In this document: positions 1 through 7,688 of the stretch, piece by piece
Layout: every line of letters starts with the position of its first letter
Numbering within the stretch: position 1 is the stretch's first letter
Assembly: GCA_041617635.1 (NCBI GenBank)
Contig: JBFJOO010000001.1
Coordinates: 82,375 to 146,374, forward strand
Reading direction: 5' to 3'
Source: Burkholderiales bacterium
GTDB lineage: Bacteria; Pseudomonadota; Gammaproteobacteria; Burkholderiales; SG8-39
DNA length: 64,000 bases
The notes under the pieces: model-generated
What the model was told of the DNA's origin: nothing
Database searches by the model: none
What the model saw: the letters and a program-made list of their open reading frames with translations, nothing else
Position numbers and translations under genes: made by a program

Positions 1-422
1 TGCCCCTCCTCCCGCTGGCGTGCGCCGCCTTCGAGCCGCAGCATGGCCTCCTCGCGCGACTTGAGATCGGCCTTCAGACGGTTGAGATGCTGCTCGCGCG
101 CGATGCGATCGGTCTCGAGCTCGGCGAGCGCGTAGCGTTGGCCGGCGATGCTCTCGGTCAGCGTGGCCGCCTGGGTCGCCAGGCGTGCGCGCTCCGCGGC
201 TGTGCTGTCGAGGCTGGCCTGCAGCGCCGCGGCCGCGCCGCGCGCACTTAGCACCTCGCGCTGGAGCGCGTCGACCTCGCGCTGCAGATTCTCGGTCGCA
301 TCCCGCCGGCCCTGCAGCGAGTTGTGGCTGAGGACGAGAAAGAGGAGGATCACCGCGCCGAAGCCGCACAGCACCGCGTCGATGAACGACAGGCTGAGCG
401 TCTGGGCGGAGCGGCGTTTCAT
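1..422 (-). CDS. Partial (first ~140 aa) membrane-anchored coiled-coil protein with an ExbD/TolR/MotB-like N-terminal TM helix carrying an Asp
   Basis: Absent from the ORF track because it runs off the window. My reverse-complement translation from the ATG at 422-420 reads MKRRSAQTLSLSFIDAVLCGFGAVILLFLVLSHNSLQGRRDATENLQREVDALQREVLSARG...LKADLKSREEAMLRLEGGARQREEG, with no stop down to base 1. The ATG overlaps the stop of the upstream channel gene (tcat at 419-422 = ATGA). Confidence 0.6.
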   Translation of the reverse strand, partial: MKRRSAQTLSLSFIDAVLCGFGAVILLFLVLSHNSLQGRRDATENLQREVDALQREVLSARGAAAALQASLDSTAAERARLATQAATLTESIAGQRYALAELETDRIAREQHLNRLKADLKSREEAMLRLEGGARQREEG

Positions 423-1216
423 CGCGTGCGCAAGTGCCGGACGAGCCGGTCGTTGACGTAAGTCTCGGTGTCGAGCACCAGGCGCTCCTGCGCGAGCTGG
501 AGCTGGTGGACCAGGAACATGAGGACGATGCTCAGGAGCAGCGCGATCAGCGTCGAGTTGAACGCGGTGCCGAGGTTCTGGGTGACGCCGGTGATGTCGC
601 CCTGCACGGCGCGGTGCGCCTGGCCGAGCGCGTTGCCGATCCCGCGCACGGTGCCGATGAAGCCGATGGACGGAATCGCCCATGCGATGTAGCGGATCTG
701 CGCGAGCTCCGAATCGAGGCGCTCGCCCTCGTTCGCGCACAGGGTGCTGGTGGCGGAGGCGACGTCCTGGACCTCCTGGGTGGTCTCGAAGCGCGTGAGC
801 GCTTGGAACACGGCGCGCGGCAGCAACAGGTTGCGCAGCGGCGCCGCCAGCGCATCGAGCGGCTTGGCGTAGCGCCGGGCATCCTCGGGCAGGATCTTGA
901 TGCCCTCGGTCAGCGGCAGCAGGTCCTGCTCGAGGAGATGGCGCTCGCGCAGAACGGTGACGCCCTTGTAGCCGAGGATCGCCAGCGCCCACAGCATCAG
1001 GATGAAACAGGCCTCCTGCTCATAGTCCTTGATCACCACGTAGAACGTGCTCGACACCTCGGCATCCGGCTGCTGCGCGATCAATGTGCGCTGCGCCGCG
1101 AGATCGGCCTCGGCGTGGGGCCGGATCACCGACACGTAGATGCCATGCACGACGATGATGGAGAAGAGGAGCGCGAAGAGCTGGTAGACAAACTCGACCG
1201 AAATCTGCTTGAACAT
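419..1216 (-). CDS. MotA/TolQ/ExbB-family proton channel protein
   Basis: ORF 419..1237. The C-terminal region IAWAIPSIGFIGTVRGIGNALGQA...TQNLGTAFNSTLIALLLSIVLMFLV matches the MotA_ExbB channel signature, and N-terminal TM helices are present. I prefer the ATG at 1216 (MFKQISVEF), which has GAGG 8 nt upstream; the track start at 1237 is a GTG lying inside a repeat. Confidence 0.8.
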   Translation of the reverse strand: MFKQISVEFVYQLFALLFSIIVVHGIYVSVIRPHAEADLAAQRTLIAQQPDAEVSSTFYVVIKDYEQEACFILMLWALAILGYKGVTVLRERHLLEQDLLPLTEGIKILPEDARRYAKPLDALAAPLRNLLLPRAVFQALTRFETTQEVQDVASATSTLCANEGERLDSELAQIRYIAWAIPSIGFIGTVRGIGNALGQAHRAVQGDITGVTQNLGTAFNSTLIALLLSIVLMFLVHQLQLAQERLVLDTETYVNDRLVRHLRTR

Positions 1217-1234
1217 GGATCGCCTCGCTGGTTC

Positions 1235-1396
1235 CACGCCACGAGGGAGGCAAGCCCCCTTCGTGCTCCCCCGATCACGGGGAAAGTCGCCGGCCCGGCC
1301 GGCGACTTTCTTTAGTTTTCACGCCACGAGGGAGGCAAGCCCCCCTTCGTGCTCCCCCGATCACGAGGATAGTCACCGGCCCGGCCGGCGACTTTC
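1235..1396. repeat. Tandem duplication (two ~76-77 bp copies, period 85 bp) of a REP-like unit made of two hairpins
   Basis: Copy 1 is 1235-1310 and copy 2 is 1320-1396, nearly identical (cacgccacgagggaggcaagccccc(c)ttcgtgctcccccgatcacg...ccggcccggccggcgactttc). Each copy holds an imperfect palindrome (cacgagggagg-caag-cccccttcgtg). Each also holds a 9-bp GC stem, gtcgccggc-ccg-gccggcgac (1286-1306), followed by tttc. Confidence 0.9.
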
Positions 1397-1432
1397 TCGC
1401 TTACCCGGGTGACGGCAGTGTACCGGGCGCGA

Positions 1433-1681
1433 TCAGATGTCGACCGGAAACGAGACCGGCGCATCGAGCCGGATTCGCTCGTCGCTACGCTGCCGCTCCC
1501 GCGCTGGCGGCTTTGCCGGGCGCGGCGGACTGGTCTTGTCGTCCTGCTTCGCGTGGTCCTGCGCGGCCGGTGGCGGCTTGCGCTCGCCGGATTGGCCGAC
1601 GGCTGACGCGGAAAAGACGAAGCCCGCGGCAACGATCCACAGCATGACACGTCCTGCAGCAGGCTTCGTTTGCCTCGTCAT
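1433..1681 (-). CDS. Small secreted/membrane-anchored Pro- and charge-rich protein (82 aa)
   Basis: Internal ATG of ORF 1433..1888: MTRQTKPAAGRVMLWIVAAGFVFSASAVGQSG... (signal-peptide-like). This ATG overlaps the stop of the upstream 783-aa gene (tcat at 1678-1681 = ATGA). No family recognised. Confidence 0.5.
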   Translation of the reverse strand: MTRQTKPAAGRVMLWIVAAGFVFSASAVGQSGERKPPPAAQDHAKQDDKTSPPRPAKPPARERQRSDERIRLDAPVSFPVDI

Positions 1682-4029
1682 GGCGCTTCCGTCGCGTAGC
1701 GCGCGCAGCGAAAACCGACATCCGGTCGCGGATCGGCCCCGTAGTCGCGATACGTCCAGCGCAACGCGCTGATGCCCGAATGCATCCAGCTCGAGCCCCG
1801 GATGACGCGGTGCCGGCCGCTCTGCGGACCGATCGGGTCGGTCGCCTCGCCGCCGGGTTTCTGGATCGCGTACACGTCGTGCACCCATTCGGCCACGTTG
1901 CCCGCCATGTCGTGGAGTCCCGCACCGCTCGGCGCGAACCGCCCGACCGGTGCCGAGCCCGCGTAGTCGTCGTCGTAGCCAGGGATCGTATCAGCCAGCA
2001 CCCCCGCCACCGACCGGTCCGCGAAATTGCCGCTGCGCGACGTCGGCGGCATGGCGTCGCCCCACGGAAAACGCGTCGGTTGCGCACTGCCGGCGTGGCG
2101 CGCAGCCCACTCCCACTCCGCTTCGGTCGGCAACCGGTAGCCGCGCCCCACCGGCTGCGCGAGCGCCACGGCGCGCTTCTCGACTCGGTAGGCTTCGGGC
2201 AGCTGCGCCGCAGCGCTCAGACTGTTGCAGTAGGCCGCCGCGTCTTCCCAGCGCACGTTGGCCACGGGCTGCGCTGCGTCGTCGAGGCCGATCGAACCGT
2301 ACCGGCCGGAATCGTGATTCGGTCGGAAGCGGCGGAACTGCGCGTTCGTGACCTCCGTCGCGGCGAGATAGTACGGTCGCTCCAGCTTGACCGCGTGCAG
2401 CGTCTCGTTGGCGCGCTGGCCCGGCTCGCGGCGCGAGGCCCCCATCGTGAACGGACGGGGACGCAGCAAGACCATGATCGTTCCGTCTGGCGCGGTGATG
2501 CGCTCCGCCAAACCTTCGGTTCCAGGCGTGCCGGCCCGGCGCAGGGTCATGCGCAACGTCTGTTCGAAATCCGGCTTGGGCGTGACCCACAGCTGTCCGG
2601 GCGCGAAGCCCTCGCGCGTGATTTCGAGCAGTTGTGGCACGGCCGGCAGCGCGTGCAGCCCGTGGGCCGCACCGTATGCGCGCCCCTCGATCGTGAGGAC
2701 TGCGTCGCGCGGCTCCACCTCGAGCCGCACCTGGCCCAACACCGCTTGCAGGGTCACGCTGAGGCTGCGCGCCTCGTCCGCGGCCAGGCGAACGACGCGA
2801 TTCTCGGCTGCGCGGCCGCGCAGCGATAGCGCGATGCGATGGTCGCGATCGGGGCTGAGCGCCAGGGTGATCGGTGTCGTGCCGACGTAGCGCCCGTCCA
2901 GCGCGACACTCGCGCCGGAGGGCTCGCTCGAGAGCTGCAATCGTCCGTCGGCGGGCGCGAGCGCTACCGGCCCGATGGTCTGCGGCTGGGCAGGCACGAC
3001 GCTGATCTCCTGTTTCCACGCCTTGCGGCCGGGCGCGCGAATCTCGAGCGCGTGAATACCGGCCGAGAGTTCGCCAGTGAACGGCAGACCGGCGCGCTGC
3101 GCGCCATCGATCCAGAGTTGCGCACCCGGGGTGTCCGACAGGATCGTCACCGCCGCGGCGGCCGGGACGAGCGCTGCGGTCAACGTCTGGCGGCGACCCA
3201 GTCCCTCGATGCCGATGCTTGCCGAGTAGTCGACGAAACCCTTCGCGCGCACGACGACCGGATACTCGCCGGCTGGAAGCTCGAGGCCGGCAAGCGGGGT
3301 GGCGCCGCGTATCTCGCCGCCGATGAGCACGACGGCGCCGGTCACGCCGGGCGTCTCGACGGACAGATAGCCGGGCAGCTTCTCCAGCGTGAACGACACT
3401 TCCTGGCGGGAAGCGTCGGTGACCTGGATCTCCCGCTCCAGCGGCTGGTACCCGGAGCGCTCGGCGCGCAGGCGATATGTGCCGGAGAGCGCGAGATACC
3501 CTTCGCCCGCCGGCATCACCGGAATCGTGCCGTCGAGCGTCACCCGGTCGGGCGCAGGCTGTATGGTCACGACGACCATGCGGGCCGCGAACAGATACCC
3601 CATGACCAACGCAAGGGCGGCGAGCGCGGCGAGCACGAGCGGCGCCGCGATCCGGCGCTGCGTCCGCACTGCGGTGGACGCGGGCGGCCCGATCACGATT
3701 GCCACTGGCGTCGGCTCGAGCACGAGACCCAGATCGGTTGCCAGCACCAGCGCGCCCGGCTCCCGCCGCACCGCCACGGTCCGCCCGGCGATCTCGAGCC
3801 GGTCGCCGTCGCGCAGCCATTGCGATCCGCCGAGCCGGTGGCCGTTCAGAAAGACGGCGGTCTCGCCGTCGAGAGACTGCAGGTACGGTTCGCCGCCCGC
3901 TTCGCCGATGACCGCGATGCCGAGCATTCTTCCGTACGGCAATGTGACCAGCAGTCCGCGCGCCGTGAGCTCCGCCGCGCGCTCGCCCTCCGCGCCCCGC
4001 GCGATCACCTTCACACCGGCTCCCGGCAC
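1678..4029 (-). CDS. Multidomain envelope protein: FHA-like N-terminus, one TM helix, PEGA-like repeats, C-terminal FGE-sulfatase (SUMF1/EgtB/PvdO fold) domain
   Basis: 783-aa ORF. FHA-like segment: FLNGHRLGGSQWLRDGDRLEIAGRTVAV. TM helix: IAAPLVLAALAALALVMGYLFAA. Repeated PEGA-like modules: GYQPLEREIQVTDASRQEVSFTLEKL, AKGFVDYSASIGIEG, LDGRYVGTTPITLALSPDR. FGE-domain motifs: RLPTEAEWEWAAR, GNVAEWV, RVIRGSSW, DVGFRCARY. An alternative GTG at 4014 gives a GTGA overlap with the upstream stop. Confidence 0.8.
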   Translation of the reverse strand: MPGAGVKVIARGAEGERAAELTARGLLVTLPYGRMLGIAVIGEAGGEPYLQSLDGETAVFLNGHRLGGSQWLRDGDRLEIAGRTVAVRREPGALVLATDLGLVLEPTPVAIVIGPPASTAVRTQRRIAAPLVLAALAALALVMGYLFAARMVVVTIQPAPDRVTLDGTIPVMPAGEGYLALSGTYRLRAERSGYQPLEREIQVTDASRQEVSFTLEKLPGYLSVETPGVTGAVVLIGGEIRGATPLAGLELPAGEYPVVVRAKGFVDYSASIGIEGLGRRQTLTAALVPAAAAVTILSDTPGAQLWIDGAQRAGLPFTGELSAGIHALEIRAPGRKAWKQEISVVPAQPQTIGPVALAPADGRLQLSSEPSGASVALDGRYVGTTPITLALSPDRDHRIALSLRGRAAENRVVRLAADEARSLSVTLQAVLGQVRLEVEPRDAVLTIEGRAYGAAHGLHALPAVPQLLEITREGFAPGQLWVTPKPDFEQTLRMTLRRAGTPGTEGLAERITAPDGTIMVLLRPRPFTMGASRREPGQRANETLHAVKLERPYYLAATEVTNAQFRRFRPNHDSGRYGSIGLDDAAQPVANVRWEDAAAYCNSLSAAAQLPEAYRVEKRAVALAQPVGRGYRLPTEAEWEWAARHAGSAQPTRFPWGDAMPPTSRSGNFADRSVAGVLADTIPGYDDDYAGSAPVGRFAPSGAGLHDMAGNVAEWVHDVYAIQKPGGEATDPIGPQSGRHRVIRGSSWMHSGISALRWTYRDYGADPRPDVGFRCARYATEAP

Positions 4030-5483
4030 GCGACGAAGACTCCCGGCGCGGGCGAGTCGGGATCCACGACGAGCTCGATCCGCACATCCTTGTACCCCGA
4101 GCGCGATCCCACCACCGTGTACGTGCCGGGCGTAAGCTCGATCTCTCGCGCCTGGAATCGGCCGAGTGACCCGACACGATAGACCGTCACCTCGGTGGCA
4201 GCGTCGGACGTGAGGCGCACGGCGATCGGCGTCGCGGCGCGCCGCAGCGCAGCGTCGAGCTGCGCGCGAGTCTGCGCGAGCCGCGGCCCGCTGGGCGCCG
4301 CATCCGCCGCCGCGAGAACCGTGCGTGCCTCCTCACGCACCGATGGCGAATACAGTCGCTTGGGATCGGCCAGCAGGGCATCGAGCGCGGCGTGCAGCTT
4401 GGCCATGCGCTCGCTGCGCGCGACGCCGCGCTGCGCAAAATCGAGCGCCGGATCGACAGCGAGCGCGCGCCGATACGCGGCGAGGGCCCCGGTCCAGCGC
4501 TCGCCCGCTTCGAGCTGCTGCGCTTCGCTCCGAATCGATGCGATCTGAACGCCCTCGAGACCCTCGTTCGCGCGGCCAAGCCCGTCGGCAGCCGACCGAT
4601 CACCGGGCCGCAGCCGGGCGGCGGCGCGAAACGCCCGCTCCGCGTCCGACCATTCGGCGCGATCGAGGTGGGCGAGCCCGCGGGTGATCAGCTGTGCGAA
4701 CTGCCGGTCCGCGACGCTGCGCTCGGCGCGCGCCAGCGCTTCTTTCGCGGGCCCGAACGCAGGGTCGAGCCGTACGGCTTCGGCGTAGTCACCGCGCGCC
4801 GCCTCCCACTCTCCGGCCCGTGCATGCGCGGCGCCGGCACTCATTCGCTCGAGCACCTTCGCCAGCTGCTCGGCGCGCGCGAGCCCGGCTTGCGCCGGCT
4901 CCGCATCGGGGCGAATCGCCAGCGCCAGACGAAAGGCATCGACCGCCTGCTTCTGATCGCCGGACTGGATCGCGGCCTCGCCGCGCTCGAGCGCTTCCGC
5001 GTACACCGTCTCGGCGCGCCCCGAAATTTCGGTCAGCCGCCGGCTCGCACCCTCGTAGCGCTGCGCACCGCCTGAATGATCGCCACTGGCGACCGCCGCT
5101 GCCGCGCGCGCGGCCGCGTCGATCGCTGCGACAAGGTCCTCCGCCGCCCACGCCTCGGCGCGCTGGTCGCGCACCACCTTCAAGCGCGCCTCGTAACGCG
5201 CTTTCGCTTCCGCGGCCGCCAGTCGTTGGCGCACCACTTCGGCGGTATCCGCCGCTCGCTCGGGAGCGGGCGCGGCGACGGGCGCTGCGGTCTGCGGCGA
5301 CGGACGAGGTGCAAGCCAGCCGGGCAGCAGCACGAACACCGTTGCGGCGAGCGCGATCGCGGCGGCGAACGCGAGCAGGACCCAATGCGCGGCAACCATC
5401 GAACGCGTACGCACGCCGGTCGGCGCCGACGCCGCAGCCGGCGGCGTCCCACCTGCGGAGTATTTCTCTGGCGTCGCGCTCAC
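4011..5483 (-). CDS. Membrane-anchored TPR-repeat protein with C-terminal PEGA-like domain
   Basis: Distal part of ORF 4011..5831. TM helix: MVAAHWVLLAFAAAIALAATVFVLL. TPR-like repeats: AVDAFRLALAIRPDAEPAQAGLARA, ARGDYAEAVRLDPAFGPAKEALARA, AERAFRAAARLRPGDRSAADGLGRA, ALAAYRRALAVDPALDFAQRGVARS. C-terminus: TVYRVGSLGRFQAREIELTPGTYTVVGSRSGYKDVRIELVV. The start is uncertain (GTG 5483 or ATG 5399). The Arg/Ser-rich N-terminus of the track ORF is out-of-frame read-through of the upstream gene. Confidence 0.7.
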   Translation of the reverse strand: MSATPEKYSAGGTPPAAASAPTGVRTRSMVAAHWVLLAFAAAIALAATVFVLLPGWLAPRPSPQTAAPVAAPAPERAADTAEVVRQRLAAAEAKARYEARLKVVRDQRAEAWAAEDLVAAIDAAARAAAAVASGDHSGGAQRYEGASRRLTEISGRAETVYAEALERGEAAIQSGDQKQAVDAFRLALAIRPDAEPAQAGLARAEQLAKVLERMSAGAAHARAGEWEAARGDYAEAVRLDPAFGPAKEALARAERSVADRQFAQLITRGLAHLDRAEWSDAERAFRAAARLRPGDRSAADGLGRANEGLEGVQIASIRSEAQQLEAGERWTGALAAYRRALAVDPALDFAQRGVARSERMAKLHAALDALLADPKRLYSPSVREEARTVLAAADAAPSGPRLAQTRAQLDAALRRAATPIAVRLTSDAATEVTVYRVGSLGRFQAREIELTPGTYTVVGSRSGYKDVRIELVVDPDSPAPGVFVACREPV

Positions 5484-5505
5484 GATGCGCACCGGGCGCG
5501 CAGAA

Positions 5506-6789
5506 CTACCGGCCGCTACCGCTCGTCCCCGGCGCTTCCCGCGCCGACGCTGCGGTCTCCGGCGACTGGCCGGTCTCCGCGACGAACATCTCGCGCAGCG
5601 TCCTGCGCCATTCCGCGTACTGGGTCTCGACCGAGCCGGAAAGCTTGACCGTGCGGCCCTCGACTTCGTCGACGATGGGCGCGACATCGCCCTTGAACGA
5701 CACCCCGAGCTCCTTGATCGCGTCCGCGTGGATCTTCGCGTCGTTCGCGAACTGGCTTCCCGAGCGGAAGACCTCGATGCCGCCGATGACCATGACGCCC
5801 TGCGCCACGTTTCCTGCGGACGTGTCGCCATAGCGGCTGCCGATCAGCACCGCGCCGACAATGGCCGCGGCGCCGAGAATGCGCCGCTCCCACGCCTGCC
5901 GCTCCAGCGCACGCTGCTGGTTGAGCTCCTCGAGATACGACTTGCGCCATTGCCCGTAGGGCTCCCGCATGTCGCTGTAGAGGTTGCCGTAGTACTGGTT
6001 CACCGTGTCGATGAACATGTACTCGCGCTCGCGAATCCGCTTCACTCGCAGGAGCATCGGGTCGCTCTCGGCCGGCAACCTGCTCACGCGGGTGATTCCG
6101 GAACCGTCCTGCGCCAGGTAGCCTGCGAAGGCGTAAGGGGCGACGCTCTTCGCGAACTTGAGCAGCGCGACACGCCGGATCTCGGCGATCTCGCGCGTGC
6201 CGAGCTTCTGCAGGTACGCGAGCATGTCGTTGGCGATCCGGTTGTAGAGATCCTGGTAGGGGTCGTGATCCTTTTCCTTGAGCGACGAGTAGCTCTGCAC
6301 CGTCGCCACCGCCGAATACTCGTTGTCGAACCACACGCGGCCCGTGACGTCGGCCACCGTGATCTGCACCCTGAGCGTCTCGCCGTTGGATTCGAGCAGC
6401 CTCCCCTTCACGCTGACGTCCACCTCTTCGGCCCGGTCGGGGACGACCCGCACCGCGCCCCAGTATCCGGTGCGCTGCAGCGTCTGCTTGAGGTGGAAGG
6501 GAATGAAGCGGGCTTCGGCCGCGTGGATCTCGGAAGCCCCACCCTGCTTCGCATCGGGACCGGCCTCGGGCCCGGCGACCACACTATTCTTCGGTTCAGG
6601 ATCGGCCTTGGGCGTCTGAAGGACATAGATGCCGACGTCCAGCAGCTTCTCCTCGGCCACCGCCGTCTGCGCCGACATCACCGACGTGGGCGTGACCGTC
6701 TGCTTCGTCGGACCCGTGGCGCAACCCTGAACGCCCGCGACGACCAGCGCGGCGACTCCGCACACGATCAAACGCAGCATCGAGATCAT
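5506..6789 (-). CDS. Probable lipoprotein of unknown function with a C-terminal hydrophobic segment
   Basis: ORF 5506..6828. Start at MISMLRLIVCGVAALVVAGVQGCATG (signal peptide plus Cys; the lipobox is imperfect). The ATG overlaps the upstream stop (tcat at 6786-6789). A late hydrophobic stretch reads RRILGAAAIVGAVLIGS...GVMVIGGIEVF. No family recognised. Confidence 0.65.
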   Translation of the reverse strand: MISMLRLIVCGVAALVVAGVQGCATGPTKQTVTPTSVMSAQTAVAEEKLLDVGIYVLQTPKADPEPKNSVVAGPEAGPDAKQGGASEIHAAEARFIPFHLKQTLQRTGYWGAVRVVPDRAEEVDVSVKGRLLESNGETLRVQITVADVTGRVWFDNEYSAVATVQSYSSLKEKDHDPYQDLYNRIANDMLAYLQKLGTREIAEIRRVALLKFAKSVAPYAFAGYLAQDGSGITRVSRLPAESDPMLLRVKRIREREYMFIDTVNQYYGNLYSDMREPYGQWRKSYLEELNQQRALERQAWERRILGAAAIVGAVLIGSRYGDTSAGNVAQGVMVIGGIEVFRSGSQFANDAKIHADAIKELGVSFKGDVAPIVDEVEGRTVKLSGSVETQYAEWRRTLREMFVAETGQSPETAASAREAPGTSGSGR

Positions 6790-7688
6790 CCGCTCGTCCC
6801 CTGCTTGTACTTTCGGTACTCGTCCCACAGCTTCTTCCGCAACTCCGGATCGCGCTCCGCCTCGGCCGCCTTGCGAATCTGGCGGGCGACGATGTCATCA
6901 TCGTTGCCGTCGCCGACGTCAGCGGGCGGCGCCCCGGCCGTTTCCGTCCCCGACGCGCCGCGCTCGCTGCCCCCGACCGGCCCGCCCGGCGAGCCGTCAC
7001 TTGTGGTGCCGCGCGGTCCGCCGTCCGATCGAGCCTCGGCGCCCGAGTCCTTGTCGGCGCCGCGCTTCGCCGCGGTCGAGTCGCCTCCGGCCGACCCCGC
7101 GTTACGCGATCCCGCGGCCCCCTTCCCCCCCTTACCCGATCGAACTCCCGACCCACCGTTGCCGGCATCCGCCGACGCTTCGGCCTCGCGTGCGCGCGCC
7201 TTGCGCGCCTCGTCCAGCAACAGCTGGTCGAACGCTTCCAACGAATTGTTCAGCTTTGCGTCGAGCATGGCCACTTGTTCGGCTTCCGTTGCGGCGGCAA
7301 TCGGCGCCCCAGATCCACCGGCGTTGCTCCTCGACTGCCCGGCGACGCGCTCCGCGAGATGCCTCACCCGCTCGCGATTCTCGGCCACCAGCGCGCGCAC
7401 GCGCACGAGGTATTGATCGAGCCGCGCGCGTTCCTCGGGCCGGGTCGCGGCGCTCGCCCGCGCCACCTCGACACGTTCGGTCAAACGCGCCAGCACCTGC
7501 TCGCTGACCGCCAGGTCGTGACGCGCCCGCGCGAGTGCATCATGCTGCGCGTCCGCCCGCGCAATGCCCGCCGCGACGCAAAGCAACACCACCGCGACGG
7601 CAGCGCCCCGGGCCACCTGCACCGCTTTGGACCGCACCCTGCTCCATTGATTCGACCACGCCATCAAAGGATTCCGATTCACCCGCAC
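6786..7688 (-). CDS. Secreted coiled-coil / low-complexity Gly-Ser-rich protein with conserved-looking C-terminal helix
   Basis: 300-aa ORF. Signal peptide AAVAVVLLCVAAGIARADA, then an A/R/E-rich helical region, a G/S/A-rich disordered region, and the C-terminus DDDIVARQIRKAAEAERDPELRKKLWDEYRKYKQG. First gene of the cluster. Start is either GTG 7688 or ATG 7664. Confidence 0.6.
   Translation of the reverse strand: MRVNRNPLMAWSNQWSRVRSKAVQVARGAAVAVVLLCVAAGIARADAQHDALARARHDLAVSEQVLARLTERVEVARASAATRPEERARLDQYLVRVRALVAENRERVRHLAERVAGQSRSNAGGSGAPIAAATEAEQVAMLDAKLNNSLEAFDQLLLDEARKARAREAEASADAGNGGSGVRSGKGGKGAAGSRNAGSAGGDSTAAKRGADKDSGAEARSDGGPRGTTSDGSPGGPVGGSERGASGTETAGAPPADVGDGNDDDIVARQIRKAAEAERDPELRKKLWDEYRKYKQGTSG

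Follow-up and report, generated by a model that had tools for sequence, protein, structure and literature searches.

The left end of a 64,000-nucleotide stretch of the genome of a Burkholderiales bacterium (assembly GCA_041617635.1; G000:C1:82375-146374, hereafter the window) carries a cluster of genes, labelled A to H in this study, for proteins of the cell envelope (Table 1). The centre of the cluster is formed by F, the gene for a channel protein of the TolQ/ExbB family, and by G and H, the genes for two paralogous membrane-anchored proteins with vWA domains. Genes A to G are all located on the minus strand of the window. The left edge of the window truncates G at residue 140, and the gene extends 666 bp past it; the rest of G and the whole of H were obtained from the left-flanking stretch L006. 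The completeness of the genome is 91%.

F is a TolQ/ExbB-family protein that lacks an ExbD-family partner

Both sequence and fold identify F as a member of the TolQ/ExbB family, and the protein has kept both pore threonines. It matches the Pfam family MotA_ExbB (PF01618) with an E-value of 2e-13 and 50.7 bits (cutoff 22.9), and a scan of the whole genome with PF01618 gave 52.5 bits at F. The ATG start codon of F is favoured over a GTG at position 1237 by the N-termini of orthologues. A profile of 46 orthologues could be aligned to Escherichia coli TolQ (8odt) with an E-value of 0.0025. T189 (GFIGTVRGI) and T222 (AFNST), which are invariant in the 46 orthologues, align to the threonines of the TolQ motifs GTVWG and ATAIG, respectively. 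In TolQ and ExbB, these are the pore-lining threonines of the last two transmembrane helices, which face the aspartate of TolR or ExbD (T145 and T178 of TolQ, T148 and T181 of ExbB). The AlphaFold2 model of F has a predicted local distance difference test score (pLDDT) of 90 and a predicted template modelling score (pTM) of 0.83. The best fold matches of the model are ExbB and TolQ chains (probability 1.00, TM-score up to 0.59/0.70), whereas MotA and PomA are weaker matches, with a TM-score of about 0.35.

The neighbourhood of F within the cluster contains neither an ExbD, TolR or MotB gene nor a TonB- or TolA-like gene. Only two ExbD-family genes were found by a scan of the whole genome with PF02472, one on contig C50 and the other on contig C109, and both of them directly adjoin other ExbB/TolQ genes.

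G and H contain an aspartate-bearing membrane helix, a stalk and a vWA head

The stop codon of F (419-421) overlaps the start codon of G (422-420), with ATGA on the coding strand at positions 419-422 (TCAT on the plus strand). The N-terminus of G, MKRRSAQTLSLSFIDAVLCGFGAVILLFLVL, is basic and precedes a single hydrophobic segment (19-residue Kyte-Doolittle maximum 2.67), which corresponds to an N-in single-pass topology. The residue Asp15 is present in all 106 representatives that have a residue at this column of the alignment (119 full-length sequences from 50%-identity clusters). Residues 35-134 are heptad-periodic, with the strongest period at 3.5 and an a/d contrast of z=6.1 that none of 500 shuffles reached, and AlphaFold2 predicts residues 8-134 as one continuous helix (mean pLDDT 89.9). 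A linker of low confidence (residues ~135-160), which contains the highly conserved motif GDRQYLTGLK, joins the helix to a confidently predicted vWA domain formed by residues 164-362, the C-terminus of which is DWP. The vWA domain matches Pfam VWA_2 (PF13519; E-value 4e-6, 27.9 bits, cutoff 27), and its Foldseek matches include the vWA domains of BatB, ANTXR2/CMG2 and inter-alpha-inhibitor heavy chains, with E-values down to 1e-6. The residues of the metal ion-dependent adhesion site (MIDAS) are conserved as D170-x-S172-x-S174, T265 and D289.

The gene for H overlaps that for G by 10 nucleotides. H is 23% identical to G in sequence and has the same build: an N-terminus with the sequence ...IGLSFLDAIFCGFGAIVLLFVIV, roughly 100 helical residues with a period of 3.5 (z=2.6), and a vWA domain in which the motif DTSGS is conserved. 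The orthologues of G and H have a common N-terminal consensus, F-S-L-S-F-L-D-x-[IM]-x-C-G-[FL]-G-A-[VI]-[IV]-L-L-F. The spacing between the transmembrane aspartate and the MIDAS aspartate is near-constant across phyla, 155-156 residues in G and 142-144 residues in H, which indicates a stalk of constrained length. Matches to PF02472 and to OmpA families of Pfam are absent from both proteins, and their C-terminal fold is that of a vWA domain.

A preliminary description of the locus had interpreted F and the truncated G as a stator-like unit. The start-stop overlap that it reported is present, as are the conserved aspartate in a clear single transmembrane helix and the heptad-like stretch of at least 100 residues. 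The ExbD fold and the OmpA domain, which it found missing, are absent from the full 362-residue protein too, and there is no TonB or TolA neighbour. The description had also placed a coiled coil in lieu of a periplasmic domain, which is incorrect, because full-length G carries the C-terminal vWA/MIDAS head. The stalk ends in a globular head, and the coiled coil is therefore a spacer and not the working end of the protein. The stator-like interpretation itself gains from the TolQ/ExbB identity of the channel and the invariance of the aspartate; it has to be extended by the vWA head and the second paralog, and the idea had already been published (PMC12204202).

F, G and H are linked in a gene cluster conserved across phyla

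A search of 1.84 billion representatives of 50%-identity clusters for relatives of G gave 1218 matches with E<=0.001, including 283 with E<=1e-30. Species-representative genomes contained at least 546 loci with relatives; 80 loci were kept, and synteny was determined by tblastn searches with nine local proteins against them. The 80 loci belong to Burkholderiales, other Gammaproteobacteria, Desulfobacterota, Acidobacteriota (among them locus L084 of the cultured Sulfidibacter corallicola M133), Kiritimatiellia, Nitrospirota and Gemmatimonadota, and represent at least seven phyla. The system is rare within Burkholderiales, where it was found in two of 301 sampled genomes and two of 143 genera, and its spread across phyla is therefore patchy.

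The gene order A, B, C, D, E, F, G, H is conserved across at least seven phyla. H follows G in 79 of the 80 loci, and of the 75 loci that contain enough upstream sequence, 74 have F upstream of G. Five of the six loci without F are on contigs that were cut too short, and the sixth is the Kiritimatiellae locus L080 discussed below. The genes upstream of F keep a fixed order, with D present in 63, C in 54, B in 44 and A in 41 of the 80 loci, and the shortfalls are largely due to contig ends.

Outside the Burkholderiales clade, an additional gene, X, is located between F and G, at L084:8496-9995 and in about 60 other loci. It encodes a protein of about 470 residues with a C-terminal FHA domain (PF00498, E-value 2e-10). 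X is missing from all nine Burkholderiales loci, in which F abuts G, and a tblastn search of this genome with 60 orthologues did not find X elsewhere. The N-terminal domain of X has no Pfam match, and its start resembles that of actin/Hsp70-type ATPases (LGLELSDAGI...).

Table 1 Coordinates of the cluster genes and of the repeat units between E and F
Feature	Position	Strand	Description
G	1..422 (first 140 codons in window); whole gene L006:11334-12422	-	362 residues
F	419..1216	-	TolQ/ExbB-like channel subunit, 265 residues from ATG
Two REP-like repeat units	1217..1432	.	Between genes E and F
E	1433..1681	-	82-residue secreted protein ending ...APVSFPVDI
D	1678..4029	-	Weak FHA-like N-terminus, transmembrane helix, PEGA repeats, FGE-sulfatase-fold domain
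C	4011..5500	-	Transmembrane helix, Pro-rich linker, TPR repeats (Pfam), C-terminal beta domain; start uncertain
B	5506..6789	-	427-residue lipoprotein
A	6786..7688	-	Secreted coiled-coil protein; no Pfam match
H	L006:10330-11343	-	337 residues, vWA paralog directly after G

Neighbouring genes of the cluster

Most of the related loci contain a small open reading frame between D and F that has a signal peptide and ends in [DS]FP[VAY]DI, as E does. The body of the E orthologues is variable and of low complexity; at the extreme C-terminus they show strong conservation between phyla, with the pattern F-x-P-[ST]-E-x-[IV]-x-x-[DE]-x-x-[VI]-[DS]-F-P-x-D-I-COOH, which resembles a docking peptide. A copy of bases 1232-1300 of the REP-like stretch that separates E from F lies at a distance of 85 bp (93% identity), and a further one is found on contig C48 (89% identity). 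The tblastn search placed E and F about 60 bp apart in the closest relatives, and the REP-like stretch thus looks like a recent insertion that split the cluster.

The FGE-sulfatase-fold domain of D matches PF03781 with an E-value of 6.5e-44, and the PEGA repeats are recognised with an E-value of 7e-34. The N-terminal FHA match of D is sub-threshold, as its 18.3 bits fall short of the cutoff of 20.7. Among NCBIfam families, the protein matches GldK best, through the FGE domain, with 96.9 bits, far below the cutoff of 350. The transmembrane helix with a histidine and the Pro-rich linker of C made it a candidate for a side-mounted transducer of the TonB/TolA type. C was rejected in this role because the transmembrane histidine (SHLS motif) is not conserved: a histidine is present in or beside the helix in only 14 of 44 orthologues, and its position varies. 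A Pfam scan with 28 aligned members and a PDB profile search identified no relatives of the lipoprotein B. The orthologues of A share the C-terminal motif DPELRxKLWxEYxxYK. A gene for a DUF481 outer-membrane beta-barrel (L006:9084-10277), 53 bp downstream of H, is not considered part of the system, because it occurs in only four of the 80 loci, with varying distance and identity. Its distance is several kb in the two closest relatives, and nearly all other loci lack it.

Comparison with known systems

The core arrangement of the locus has already been predicted by computation. Genes named TPH-vWA were described in 2025 as tightly co-occurring with tolQ homologues in the absence of tolR or exbD, mostly as heterologous pairs (Mol Biol Evol 2025;42:msaf138, PMC12204202). 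Their products have a conserved aspartate in the trans-pore helix, which AlphaFold3 placed inside a conserved ring of threonines; the genes are mainly from Proteobacteria and Verrucomicrobia, and their function was given as unknown (PMC12204202). The locus analysed here likewise combines a tolQ-like gene without tolR or exbD, two heterologous vWA genes with membrane anchors, a transmembrane aspartate, a threonine pair in the channel and the lack of an SHLS/His motif, and the related loci include ones from Gammaproteobacteria and Kiritimatiellia. All features stated in that study that can be checked are found, and by its architecture the locus is a member of the predicted TPH-vWA and tolQ-like family. 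In contrast to the text of PMC12204202, in which we found neither, the present analysis adds the larger cluster with A, B, C, D, E and X and the fixed stalk lengths; the Burkholderiales clade of this locus differs further in that it is without the FHA protein X. A protein search that started from a marine gammaproteobacterial member returned no named protein of Idiomarina, the genus of the Idiomarina loihiensis seed of PMC12204202, among the best 120 matches, only Pseudohongiella/SAR86-like proteins. In the full-text literature, our search yielded no further paper that describes this arrangement, nor any that ties it to FGE, PEGA or FHA neighbours.

With the TolQ-TolR and ExbB-ExbD complexes, the 5:2 motors of the Tol-Pal and Ton systems that run on the proton-motive force, F shares the Pfam family, the closest fold and both pore threonines. 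Like TolR and ExbD, G and H are N-in, single-pass proteins with an aspartate near the cytoplasmic end of the helix. Unlike TolR and ExbD, they do not have the PF02472 periplasmic domain, probably form a heterodimer, and continue into coiled-coil stalks of about 100 residues that carry vWA heads. The cluster also differs from the Tol and Ton systems in that it contains no TolA- or TonB-type partner with an SHLS/His helix, and in the extra hydrophobic helix of F.

The GldL-GldM motor of gliding and type IX secretion is similar in concept, since it is a 5:2 motor in which the dimeric subunit is extended as a long periplasmic stalk. The gene order of gldK-L-M-N also resembles that of the cluster, with an FGE-fold protein followed by the channel and then the stalk proteins. 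However, F is TolQ-like and not GldL-like, G and H are built of a coiled coil and vWA domains and not of GldM domains, and the cluster occurs in taxa outside Bacteroidota; the parallel with gldK-L-M-N may be coincidental. MotA-MotB and PomA-PomB share with F, G and H the combination of a channel of the MotA/ExbB superfamily and an aspartate-bearing single-pass partner. They differ in the weaker fold match of their channel subunits, and G and H have no plug, no OmpA-like peptidoglycan-binding domain and no flagellar gene context.

Putative mechanism of the F, G and H complex

Domain architectures, residue conservation, synteny and folds were established directly, and from these we infer complex formation, a stoichiometry, rotation, a ligand and a cellular role. 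We propose, with a probability of about 0.6, that F, G and H constitute one proton-driven complex of the inner membrane of the TolQR/ExbBD/MotAB (5:2) type, in which the aspartate-bearing helices of G and H replace TolR or ExbD. F would form a pentameric ring like that of TolQ or ExbB. There are two paralogous partners, and the two copies in the 5:2 unit are thus probably a heterodimer. The N-terminal helices of one G and one H would be inserted into the pore of F, with the pair of aspartates facing the ring of threonines. The flow of protons through the aspartate/threonine site may turn or re-orient the pair of G and H. Their parallel helices of about 100 residues, which correspond to about 15 nm at 1.5 Å per residue, would form a stalk across the periplasm. 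By means of the stalk and the flexible linker of G, the two MIDAS heads would reach the vicinity of the peptidoglycan or the outer membrane, where they may bind a metal-dependent ligand. We speculate that the ligand could be the C-terminus of E, the FGE-fold/PEGA protein D, the lipoprotein B or the secreted coiled-coil protein A. The AlphaFold3 analysis of PMC12204202 is independent of ours and arrived at the same model for this architecture.

A, B, C, D and E are likely to be partners or regulators of F, G and H. The weak FHA match in D and the clear FHA domain in X of other lineages suggest control by phospho-threonine.

Several points weigh against the proposed complex. The 5:2 stoichiometry, probably 5:1:1, and the insertion of G and H into the pore are inferred. 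F contains an extra hydrophobic helix, around residues 67-86, that has no counterpart in TolQ or ExbB. F could therefore have four rather than three transmembrane helices, and its topology may differ from that of TolQ and ExbB. The resemblance of the transmembrane helix of G to those of ExbD and TolR, which the preliminary description had pointed out, holds for the position of the aspartate but does not extend to statistically demonstrable homology of the compared sequences. An hhalign comparison of the N-termini of G and H with 24 ExbD/TolR proteins of Burkholderiales aligned aspartate to aspartate (LSFLDxI versus IPMIDVL) over eight columns, with a probability of 1.3%. This match is not significant, and therefore we do not claim homology for the helices of G and H. 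A PDB profile search with G returned no ExbD, TolR or MotB chain, only coiled-coil noise and weak vWA matches. Finally, at L080, on a contig of a Kiritimatiellae metagenome-assembled genome, G and H occur with no F-like or X-like gene within about 5 kb upstream and 9 kb downstream; no other informative locus has the pair uncoupled from F.

The presence of G and H without a nearby F at L080 and the lack of demonstrable ExbD homology in the membrane helix would suit a different arrangement, in which G and H are a membrane-anchored vWA scaffold or adhesin like BatA and BatB and are merely co-expressed with F. The transmembrane aspartate would then serve helix packing or oligomerisation, and F would function by itself or with a different partner. 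Among solved structures, those closest in fold to the head include Bacteroides BatB and aerotolerance vWA proteins, which agrees with this possibility. Nevertheless, we regard such a scaffold as unlikely. Packing alone hardly explains a charged residue in the single-pass helix of every one of the 106 representatives, and the threonines of F that match those facing the aspartate of ExbD and TolR are invariant. F has no other partner nearby, both ExbD genes of the genome are already paired, and the linkage of F, G and H is near-universal.

The complex might also be formed as proposed and work as a gated ion channel or envelope sensor instead of a rotary motor. A ligand or tension acting on the vWA heads would open F and send a signal inwards through FHA proteins and Ser/Thr phosphorylation. 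FHA modules are indeed built into the system, weakly in D and as X between F and G in most lineages, but the Burkholderiales clade has lost X and retains the rest of the cluster. Moreover, the rigid stalk of fixed length suits mechanical transmission, and all structurally studied members of the superfamily convert ion flow into movement (review PMC9389320). We give a sensor or channel as little credence as a scaffold.

An anti-phage defence module like Zorya is highly improbable. The matches of F to ZorA are weak (E-value 8e-4 at 16 bits in PADLOC; 15.4 bits in NCBIfam, where the cutoff is 500) and cover only the core shared by MotA and ExbB, and F is devoid of the long tail of ZorA. G and H lack the ZorB domain that binds peptidoglycan, ZorC, ZorD and nuclease genes are absent, and no Zor family is matched by G, H or the neighbours. 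In a mobile defence island one would not expect neighbours like these, which encode envelope proteins and keep a fixed order across phyla.

Possible role of the complex in the cell envelope

To our knowledge, every member of the MotA/ExbB/TolQ superfamily that has been characterised drives a major envelope process, namely the rotation of flagella, uptake through TonB, the integrity of the outer membrane, gliding, type IX secretion or defence by Zorya. At this locus, the usual ExbD, TolR or MotB partner is probably replaced by a heterodimeric coiled-coil stalk with integrin-like heads for metal-dependent binding. The family is large, and the cluster is conserved from Burkholderiales to Desulfobacterota, Acidobacteriota, Kiritimatiellia and Nitrospirota. 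The ligand of the vWA heads, once identified, would define a new envelope function powered by the proton-motive force. The value of this particular locus is modest, because the core idea has already been published as a prediction.

A broader proposal, which we make tentatively and hold to be rather doubtful, is that the cluster of eight or nine genes encodes an unstudied trans-envelope machine of the rank of Ton, Tol-Pal, Agl-Glt and the GldLM core of the type IX secretion system. In such a machine, a TolQ-like pentamer driven by the proton-motive force would move a heterodimeric G/H axle, a coiled-coil stalk of constrained length (about 15 nm), the MIDAS heads of which would capture an acidic ligand, for which the conserved C-terminus of E is one candidate and protein D or lipoprotein B another. 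FHA modules would control assembly or activity through phospho-threonine signalling.

The genome contains a fourth gene of the MotA/ExbB family outside the window (G000:C12:46632-48180, 35.7 bits), which likewise lacks an ExbD gene next to it. The open reading frame after it encodes an N-terminal hydrophobic helix with an aspartate (...TVFRDVIMLALAGFVMLVLLLL...) and then a globular domain of about 180 residues. The two genes may form a further stator-like pair of a non-canonical type in this genome.

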